A DNA stretch of 2,853 bases from a phage. Both the position numbers and the translations under genes were made by a program. A model generated the notes under the pieces. It saw nothing but the letters and a program-made list of their open reading frames with translations, was not told where the DNA came from and did no database searches. Where the stretch lies: the sequence record PZ049714.1. One strand, written 5' to 3'. Of the stretch, positions 1-2,853 are shown in pieces (the first letter of the stretch is position 1; each line of letters starts with the position of its first letter).

Positions 1-689
1 TGGTCGACGCCCATGTCCGACAGCGTCGTCAGTTCCTGCGCCAGCTCGATGCCTTCGGCGATGACCTGCGCGCGCGAGGCCCGCGCGATCTTGAGGATCG
101 ACTCGACGAACTCGCGTTTGACCACATCTTGGTGGATGCCGTCGATGAAGTAGCGATCGATCTTCACGTAATCCGGGCGCAGCTCCGACCATAGCCGCAG
201 GCTCGAATAGCCGGCGCCGAGATCGTCGAGGGCGATGCCGAAGCCCATCGCGCGGTAGTGATGCAGGGCCTTGTCCAGCAGTTCGAAATCGTCGGTCGGG
301 GTCTGTTCGGTCAGTTCGATGACCACCTGCCCGGCCGGGATGCCATAGGCATTGAGCAGTTCCAGGGTGCGGCCGGGCTTGTGCGCCGCTTCGAGCAAGG
401 TCTCGGGGGAGGCGTTGAGGAACAGCTTGCCGCGCAATGCGCCTTGGCTGTAGCGGCGGCAGGCGCTGCGCCGGCACGCCATTTCCAGCTCGTTCAGCCG
501 TCCGGCCTGCCGCGCGGTGGCCAGCAGGTTGATCGGCGAATGCAGCGGGCTGTTGGACGGGCCGCGACTCAGCGCTTCGTAACCGAGGATGCGGCGCTCG
601 GAGAGCGAGACGATGGGTTGGAACAGGGTGGTGATGTCGCCTTGAGCAAGGATGTGCCCCAGCATGCTCAACTGCTCGGTGACGGTCAT
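1..689 (-). CDS. EAL-domain cyclic-di-GMP phosphodiesterase, 3'-partial (continues beyond position 1); EAL domain begins ~20 residues from the N-terminus; possibly RapA-like
   Basis: Minus-strand translation from the ATG at 689..687 gives MTVTEQLSMLGHILAQGDITTLFQPIVSLSERRILGYEALSRG...LFLNASPE...VVIELTEQ...ALDDLGAGYSSLRLWSELRPDYVKIDRYFIDG...VIAEGIELAQ..., i.e. the canonical EAL-domain motifs in the correct N-to-C order (EAL, N, E, DDxGxGYSSL, KIDR, AEGIE). There are 229 complete codons with no stop to the window edge. An in-frame TGA lies 18 codons upstream of the ATG with no intervening ATG (one GTG sits inside the hairpin). Weak SD-like GAGA 6 nt upstream of the ATG. An alternative start at Met9 (ATG at 665..663) cannot be excluded. 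Confidence 0.88.
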   Translation of the reverse strand, partial: MTVTEQLSMLGHILAQGDITTLFQPIVSLSERRILGYEALSRGPSNSPLHSPINLLATARQAGRLNELEMACRRSACRRYSQGALRGKLFLNASPETLLEAAHKPGRTLELLNAYGIPAGQVVIELTEQTPTDDFELLDKALHHYRAMGFGIALDDLGAGYSSLRLWSELRPDYVKIDRYFIDGIHQDVVKREFVESILKIARASRAQVIAEGIELAQELTTLSDMGVD

Positions 690-994: not shown

Positions 995-1115
995 GTGGTG
1001 CGAAAGGCCAATCCGATTTTACGCCCACGGTATTCCTGCTGCGCTCAGGACGCCGTGCCCGTGGTGCGCGGAGCGCACCCTACGCCCGCGTCGCACAGTA
1101 TTTTTGTTGCTCCGC

Positions 1116-2853
1116 CTAGTGCTTGGCCATGGCCGAGCTCAGCCCCAGGTAGTCGAGCAGGATACGGCCGCTCTCGGAGAGGTAGGCGTCGTCTTCCGGC
1201 TTGGGCTTGTCCATTTCCTGGTGCGGCGTGGTTTCCTCTTCCTTCTCCAGCTTGGCCAGCGGTTCCTCGCCCTTGGCCTGGCGCAGGGCGTTCTGCAGCG
1301 CCAGCTGGCGTTTCTCGATATCGGCCTGCTGGGCGCGGCGCTTCTCTTCGTTGAGGCTCACCGTGGTTTCGTGCATCAGCTCCTGCGCCAGGGCCAGGCG
1401 ATCACGGGTGAAGACGAAGTCGGGGTTCTCGCCGGTACGGGCTTCGTGACGTGCCTTCAGCTCGGCCAGGAACGGTTTGAACGGGTTCATGTCCGGGTTG
1501 ATCGCGGCGCGGATGCTGTCCCACGGCAGGGCCTCGGGCAGGGCGCTTTCGCCGATCTCCTTGGTGTCGACGTCGGCGGGGTAGGAAATGTCGGGAATCA
1601 CGCCCTGATGCTGGGTGCTCTGGCCCGAGACGCGGTAGAACTTGGCCAGGGTCAGTTTCAGTTCACCGTGGTTGAGCGGCTGGATGGTCTGCACGGTGCC
1701 CTTGCCGAAGGTCTGGCCGCCGAGGATCAAGCCGCGGTGGTAGTCCTGCATGGCGCCGGCGAAGATCTCCGAGGCGGATGCCGAAAGGCGGTTCACCAGG
1801 ACGGCCAGCGGACCCTTGTAGAAGGCGCCGACCTGCTCGTCGGCCAGCACGTCGACACGGCCATCGCTGTTGCGCACCAGCACCGTGGGGCCCTGGTCGA
1901 TGAACAGGCCGGTCAGCTCGGTGGCCTCCTGCAGGGAGCCGCCGCCGTTGTTGCGCAGGTCGATCACCACGCCATCGACCTTTTCCGCTTCCAGTTCGGA
2001 CAGCAGCTTCTTCACGTCGCGGGTGGTGCTCTTGTAGTTCTGGTCGCCGGCACGCAGCGCCTTGAAGTCGAGGTAGAAGGCCGGGATCTCGATGACGCCG
2101 AGCTTGAAGTTCTGCCCCTGGTGTTCGAGGTTCAGCACCGACTTCTTCGCCGCCTGTTCTTCGAGCTTCACCGCCTCGCGGGTGATGGCGACCACCTTGC
2201 TGTTCTGGTCGTTGGGTGCATTGCTCGCCGGGATCACCTCCAGGCGCACCACCGAGCCCTTCGGCCCGCGGATCAGCTTGACCACTTCGTCCAGGCGCCA
2301 GCCGATGACGTCGACCATTTCGTCGTTGGCCTGGGCCACGCCGATGATCCTGTCCGCCGGCGACAGCTGCTTGCTCTTCTCGGCCGGGCCTGCCGGCACC
2401 AGGCGCACGATCTTGACGTGCTCGTTGTCGCTCTGCAGCACCGCGCCGATGCCTTCCAGCGACAGGCTCATGTTGATGTCGAAGTTTTCCGGCGTTGTCC
2501 GGCGACAGGTACTGGGTGTGCGGGTCGTAGGATTGCGCGAAGGCGTTGATGTAGGTCTGGAACACGTCCTCGCCGCGGGTCTGGTTCAGCCGTGCCAGCT
2601 GGTTCTTGTAGCGCTTGGTCAGCAGTTCCTCGATCGCCTTCGGTTCCTTGCCGGCGATCTTCAGGCGCAGCACCTCGTCCTTCACGCGCTTGCGCCAGAG
2701 GTCGTCGAGCTCGGCGGCGTTCTTGGCCCAGGCGGCTTTCTCGCGATCGACCAGCAGCTCTTCGTCGACGCTGAAGTCGAAGCTGTCGACGCCCTTTTCC
2801 AGCAGGCCCAGCGCGTAGTTGAGGCGGTTCTGCAGGCGTTCCAGATGCCGCTT
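1116..2853 (-). CDS. prc: Tail-specific (C-terminal processing) protease Prc/Tsp, peptidase family S41; 5'-partial (N-terminal ~120 aa lie beyond 2853); reading frame interrupted by an apparent 1-bp insertion near 2479-2482, so a possible pseudogene or a sequencing error
   Basis: Minus-strand translation from 2853 down to ~2480 reads ...FQTYINAFAQSYDPHTQYLSPDNA, matching from memory the E. coli Prc region ...FAREIDPHTNYLSPRN. In the +1 frame, from the ATG at 2471 to the TAG stop at 1116-1118, it reads MSLSLEGIGAVLQ... (E. coli EMSLSLEGIGAVLQ), followed by a PDZ-like segment, IDLRNNGGGS, and the S41 catalytic dyad context RLSASASEIF...GQTFGKGTVQ (Ser codon ~1776-1778, Lys codon ~1701-1703, 25 residues apart as in Prc Ser430/Lys455). 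High GC3 codon usage on the minus strand. Confidence 0.92.

Follow-up and report, generated by a model that had tools for sequence, protein, structure and literature searches.

The tail-specific protease Prc of E. coli (Tsp; 5WQL, 6IQQ and related entries) belongs to family S41A and is built from an N-terminal domain (NTD), a PDZ domain, an S41 domain and a C-terminal helical domain, in this order, with Ser452 and Lys477 forming a Ser/Lys dyad. The orthologous protease in P. aeruginosa is Prc (AlgO); there, null alleles of prc appear under selection because they suppress mucA22 mucoidy (bioRxiv 10.1101/2024.05.28.596254). In Pseudomonas loci, prc is preceded by an ADH-like gene and followed by an EAL/GGDEF gene, a neighbourhood that the gene studied here shares with its P. 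aeruginosa ortholog.

The stretch of DNA analysed here (2,853 nt; the window) contains part of such a locus. Its minus strand carries the last 578 of the ~694 codons of prc, followed by a 426-nt intergenic region and an EAL-domain gene, of which the first 229 codons are included. The native start of prc and the signal peptide are located beyond the end of the window, ~116 codons upstream, as judged from the ortholog in Pseudomonas lopnurensis AL-54, the N-terminus of which, MKRTLTCTFLAVFLGLQASLALAKA, looks like a signal peptide. Once a single base is taken out, the window encodes a protein (the repaired protein) that shares the domain order of E. coli Prc and has the two dyad residues at the same positions. 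Unlike E. coli prc, however, the gene as given is broken by one base, after the codon that aligns to E. coli residue 234.

Two reading frames of prc in the window

The 5' part of prc within the window (frame A, minus strand, 2853..2491) can be translated without a stop from KRHLERLQ to DPHTQYLSPDNA and comprises the helical N-terminal domain of Prc (TSP_NTD) up to YLSPDNA; this segment is 100% identical to that of P. lopnurensis AL-54. Past the junction, frame A continues out of frame (minus strand, 2490..1663) through 275 Arg/Gly/Pro-rich codons to a stop at 1663-1665, making up the 3' part of the open reading frame 1663..2685. The rest of prc is found in the +1 frame (frame B, minus strand, 2489..1116), which starts with ENFDINMSLSLEGIG (ENFDIN...), remains open until the TAG stop at 1116-1118 and carries the PDZ domain, the S41 domain with its dyad and the C-terminal domain, DUF3340. 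The earliest start codon in frame B is the ATG at 2471, which gives an open reading frame of 451 amino acids. An initial annotation of this DNA had described a one-base frameshift between the N-terminal domain and the PDZ/catalytic part of Prc, an Arg-rich out-of-frame continuation ending at this same stop, and a 451-residue restart product from ATG 2471 lacking the signal peptide; all of these are present in the sequence.

At the junction, the minus strand (2496-2484) reads AAC GCC GGA AAA C. Alignment with the four closest sequences (L001, L002, L003 and L019; see below) places one extra base at 2491..2492, where the coding strand has the dinucleotide CC (GG on the plus strand); the ancestral GCG GAA of the relatives, encoding Ala-Glu, has become GCC GGA A, and the frame has moved by +1. 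All relatives have prc in one uninterrupted reading frame, whereas the window does not. The range in which the initial annotation had placed the lesion, 2465-2495, does contain the true site, but its pinpointed position, plus 2479-2480, has to be corrected: the minus strand has its GCCGG run at 2493-2489 (CCGGC at 2489-2493 on the plus strand), with the extra base at 2491/2492. Judged by the GCG GAA of the relatives, this base is moreover a C on the coding strand (G on the plus strand) rather than a G, and where AACGCCGAAAAC had been predicted for intact alleles, the relatives read AACGCGGAAAAC. Whichever base is removed, the peptide that results is SPDNAENFDINMS.

The repaired protein displays the long-form architecture TSP_NTD-PDZ-S41-DUF3340, which is split over two frames in the sequence as given. 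Pfam places TSP_NTD at residues 2-119 (E 4e-38), PDZ at 128-206, Peptidase_S41 at 250-423 (E 8e-49) and DUF3340 at 428-569 (E 1e-39), all four far over the Pfam cut-offs; for PF03572 the score is 165.9 bits, with the cut-off at 24, and a match to this family was also precomputed for the 451-residue open reading frame. Both frames are thus homologous to Prc far beyond chance, as had been proposed. Residues 8-573 of the repaired protein align to residues 124-671 of E. coli Prc (5WQL) with an E value of 5e-128, and removal of one base makes the product colinear with its E. coli counterpart, with no gap where the junction aligns to residues 224-253 of 5WQL; the junction segments are of equal length, SPDNAENFDINMSLSLEG against SPRNTEQFNTEMSLSLEG. 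In the same alignment, LSASASEIF is found opposite FSASASEIF (Ser452), and TFGKGTVQ opposite TFGAGTVQ; the dyad residue numbers were counted from this alignment, and position 477 is Ala in the 5WQL crystal construct and Lys in both the wild type and the window. Apart from the extra base, the gene is an ordinary, intact prc of a P. lopnurensis-like bacterium and encodes a tail-specific C-terminal processing protease of MEROPS family S41A.

Relatives of the window and distribution of the extra base

In a scan using one genome per species, the closest genome was that of P. lopnurensis AL-54 (L003), with 98.3% nucleotide identity over the whole window and a Prc that is 100% identical to the repaired protein across all 578 residues. 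Stutzerimonas kunmingensis follows with 96% amino-acid identity, and then other Stutzerimonas species. Contigs from metagenome-assembled genomes (L001, L002 and L019) are also near-identical, the four sequences L001, L002, L003 and L019 showing 97.9-99% nucleotide identity. The framing of the lesion in terms of P. aeruginosa algO and mucoidy is therefore not directly applicable and serves as an analogy only.

All four of these sequences have a single gap at window position 2492 and read AAC or AAT GCG GAA AAC at the junction. A metagenome-wide pattern search that accepted either allele returned 19 contigs with a 42-nt match, every one of which carries the intact allele. Among 101 loci fetched from Pseudomonadaceae, 100 encode the continuous DPH..YLSP(D/E)(N/S)AENFDINMSLSLEGIG; in the single exception, L002, a run of N breaks the match, and the site itself reads GCGGAA. 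No protein identical to the read-through product of the shifted frame was found among 5.8 billion clustered proteins. The exact 451-residue product does occur among public contigs, exclusively in L001 and L002, where prc is cut by runs of N and not by this insertion: in both scaffolds, L001 (GCA_032086435.1, ~4895-4920) and L002 (GCA_032014585.1, ~895-910), prc contains 10-N gaps, at each of which the local length is wrong, and gene callers therefore give the same 451-residue protein there as the restart open reading frame gives in the window. The database entry for this product is a scaffolding artefact and no evidence of a truncated Prc.

The prc part of the window differs from L003 at 5 nucleotides and from L019 at 13, all of them synonymous, so that dN is 0 in both halves of the gene. 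A decaying pseudogene would be expected to have accumulated non-synonymous changes in excess or additional disruptions; here, there are 0 non-synonymous changes, and neither half has a second indel or stop. Since all differences in prc are synonymous, no second lesion is present and the active site is kept, the lesion must be either extremely recent or non-biological.

The EAL-domain gene shows another pattern. The best match to the N-terminus of its product in the window has 96% identity and is encoded on a 2.8-kb ENA contig that ends short of the junction. Within this gene, a block at 9-360 (minus strand) contains 25 substitutions found in the window alone, against only 2 at 361-2853 relative to L001-L003. 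Most of the 25 affect third codon positions, and together they cause six, mostly conservative, amino-acid changes. Sequencing errors were considered as their source and ruled out by the third-position bias and the conservative changes; these substitutions are clearly natural. The sharp mosaic boundary suggests that part of the EAL/GGDEF gene was acquired by recombination with an unsampled lineage.

Origin of the extra base

Three 1-nt indels are specific to the window: the insertion at 2492 in prc and, between prc and the EAL gene (minus strand, 1016..1026), two gaps, one at 1026 and one at 1016, which are seen in the alignment with L001 and L002 and both fall within GCGG. All three are located on the first two bases of a minus-strand GCGG. 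In Monte Carlo sampling of the same sequence, p for three random sites sharing a covering 4-mer was 0.004 when all had to be on one strand and 0.011 when either strand was allowed, values that refer to three events only and to a motif spotted post hoc. The polarity of the intergenic gaps cannot be set, because L003 has a larger deletion there and L019 an unrelated sequence. Outside the divergent block, at 361-2853, the window has three unique indels versus two unique substitutions relative to L001-L003, a ratio that is unusual for natural variation and favours an artefact.

These observations make a sequencing or assembly consensus error the most likely explanation, to which we assign a probability of about 0.6. 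A context-dependent miscall of indels at the motif GCGG (plus-strand CCGC), of the type known as a systematic error of long-read consensus at modified motifs or short G/C runs, would have added one base in prc and removed one at each of the two downstream intergenic GCGG sites. That the three indels share GCGG suggests such a motif-linked error, since natural mutations would have no reason to share a motif. The lesion resembles indel errors of long-read or low-coverage assemblies in being a 1-nt change in a short G/C run, present in one assembly only, in a gene that is otherwise perfectly conserved, and also in that the same short motif is hit again elsewhere in the window. A technical cause is the most likely reading of an insertion that is unique, is free of decay and has its motif in common with two further indels. 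Other frameshifted prc genes can be compared: in CP162760.1 (P0005), a 6.3-Mb Pseudomonas sequence (L103, 3001-6991), and in the JGI metagenome contig Ga0487874_23592 (P0002; L104), prc is split in two calls. The pattern of a broken prc resembles the one seen in the window, and these assemblies have split neighbouring genes as well, EAL/GGDEF or ABC-transporter genes, which indicates that they are rich in indels; in both traced cases, the breaks in prc are therefore most simply assembly artefacts. A frameshift hotspot in prc was also considered and rejected, P0002, P0005 and P0009 being shifted at different codons.

Several observations speak against an artefact. The site is a run of one to two bases and not a long homopolymer. 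Unlike assemblies ridden with indel errors, the window has a single coding frameshift in ~2.4 kb, which shows that its assembly is not full of gross errors; the clustered substitutions in the EAL gene are natural; the GCGG motif was spotted post hoc from three events; the intergenic gaps, for which the polarity cannot be set, lie in a spot that is naturally variable in indels; and prc null mutants are viable and selected in some settings (10.1101/2024.05.28.596254). A genuine, very recent loss-of-function allele, arisen when prc spontaneously gained 1 bp (GCG to GCCG) and truncating the periplasmic protease after its N-terminal domain, is accordingly a possibility that we take seriously but favour less. 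The frameshift is, after all, present in the sequence as given, the remaining coding sequence of the window is free of frameshifts, and the lineage is a distinct natural strain with synonymous variants of its own. Being unique and showing no decay would be expected equally of a recent mutation, for instance one arisen in culture, and the selected mucA22 suppressors of P. aeruginosa provide a precedent, belonging to the same allele class as the frameshift would if it were real. Against this reading stand the lack of a second independent sequence with the insertion among relatives, metagenomes or the protein collection, the dN of 0 in both halves of prc, the GCGG motif common to the other two window-specific indels, and the artefactual appearance of the frameshifted prc calls traced elsewhere. 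Moreover, unlike the suppressor strains, the organism belongs to the P. lopnurensis/Stutzerimonas group and not to P. aeruginosa; no sign of a mucA mutation, mucoidy or clinical origin was seen, and the window contains nothing that would connect it with selection on mucA or alginate. That the frameshift is real, and that a P. lopnurensis-like strain from a natural environment has lost Prc only just now, can be proposed only tentatively.

The initial annotation had held that a sequencing error was possible but not the default. The uniqueness of the insertion, the absence of decay, the GCGG common to the indels and the occurrence of other prc frameshifts in indel-ridden assemblies together put the likelihood of an artefact no lower than that of a real allele, and the selected null allele that had been put forward, while possible, is less likely than a consensus error. 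Relatives with one base fewer had been named as the observation that would refute a real lesion; they were indeed found, in agreement with an artefact, yet a recent real mutation predicts the same result.

Programmed recoding, in which a +1 shift of the ribosome near GCC GGA AAA C or slippage of RNA polymerase would maintain full-length Prc, is very improbable. Frame B overlaps frame A by ~37 codons between its last upstream stop and the junction, and a +1 shift anywhere in this overlap would yield a near-normal protein; GGA, a Gly codon of minor use where genomes are GC-rich, would also fit such a shift. However, programmed shifts are conserved, whereas the shifted arrangement occurs in none of ~100 related loci. 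The site has no in-frame stop, no slippery heptamer and no known +1 shifty motif, a Shine-Dalgarno-like stimulator upstream is absent, and no A/T run of at least 9 that could serve transcriptional slippage is present. An Rfam search of the window gave no RNA family match and nothing credible at or near the junction. With the arrangement not conserved and the motif absent, both programmed frameshifting and transcriptional slippage were rejected.

If the extra base is a consensus error, as we favour, annotation of the gene as a prc pseudogene would be unwarranted, and the GCGG indels would hint at a motif-linked error. If the frameshift does mark a natural strain, selection for prc loss, known from mucA22 revertants of P. 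aeruginosa, would extend to a non-clinical Stutzerimonas-related member. The allele would then be one more spontaneous null of a well-studied non-essential periplasmic protease and would matter only for the phenotype of that strain. Either way, the gene is well known and the event an ordinary one.

Predicted products and neighbouring sequence elements

Were the frameshift real, translation from the native start would produce the signal peptide and the N-terminal domain followed by ~275 unrelated residues. Reading-frame analysis together with known Prc biology would make the allele a null, in line with what had been suggested before. No Shine-Dalgarno-like sequence was found 5-12 nt before ATG 2471 (CGACATCAAC-ATG), nor any stop of the upstream frame near this ATG that could allow translational coupling, and rescue by internal initiation appears unlikely. 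The 451-residue PDZ/S41 fragment would be made poorly or not at all, and, having no signal peptide, would be cytoplasmic, the wrong location for a periplasmic protease. The traits to be expected would be those of prc nulls: changed turnover of peptidoglycan hydrolases, envelope and osmotic sensitivity, and changed processing of anti-sigma factors.

The intergenic region between prc and the EAL gene contains a strong terminator-like hairpin on the minus strand (708-738), AAGGGCCAC-AGCG-GTGGCCCTT, followed by TTTC. It is located ~380 nt after the prc stop, and only ~20 nt separate it from the start codon of the EAL gene (689) downstream. Folding of the 66 nt around it (695-760) gave -32.2 kcal/mol with z = -4.7; a consensus terminator scan yielded weak plus-strand matches only and missed the hairpin at 738-708. 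Nested GC-rich inverted repeats are found at 910-992, pairing TGTAGGAGCCGGCTTGCCGGCGA with TCGGCGTCCCCCAGGCTCCTACA and CTTGCCGGCGATCGGCG with CGCGGATCGCCGGCAAG at 94% complementarity, and presumably resemble Pseudomonas REP-type elements; L019 has an unrelated sequence at this place. At the indel-variable intergenic spot, L003 has a deletion of 14 nt (window 1029-1016) or 20 nt, differing between two alignments, and its copy of the G6 run at 893 is shorter by one G. Finally, P0001, a 679-residue protein of Pseudomonas sp. OF001 named 'putative LigA' at NCBI, appears to be an alternative-frame, Arg/Gly/Pro-rich translation of nearly the whole of prc, and thus a spurious long open reading frame called in a GC-rich genome.
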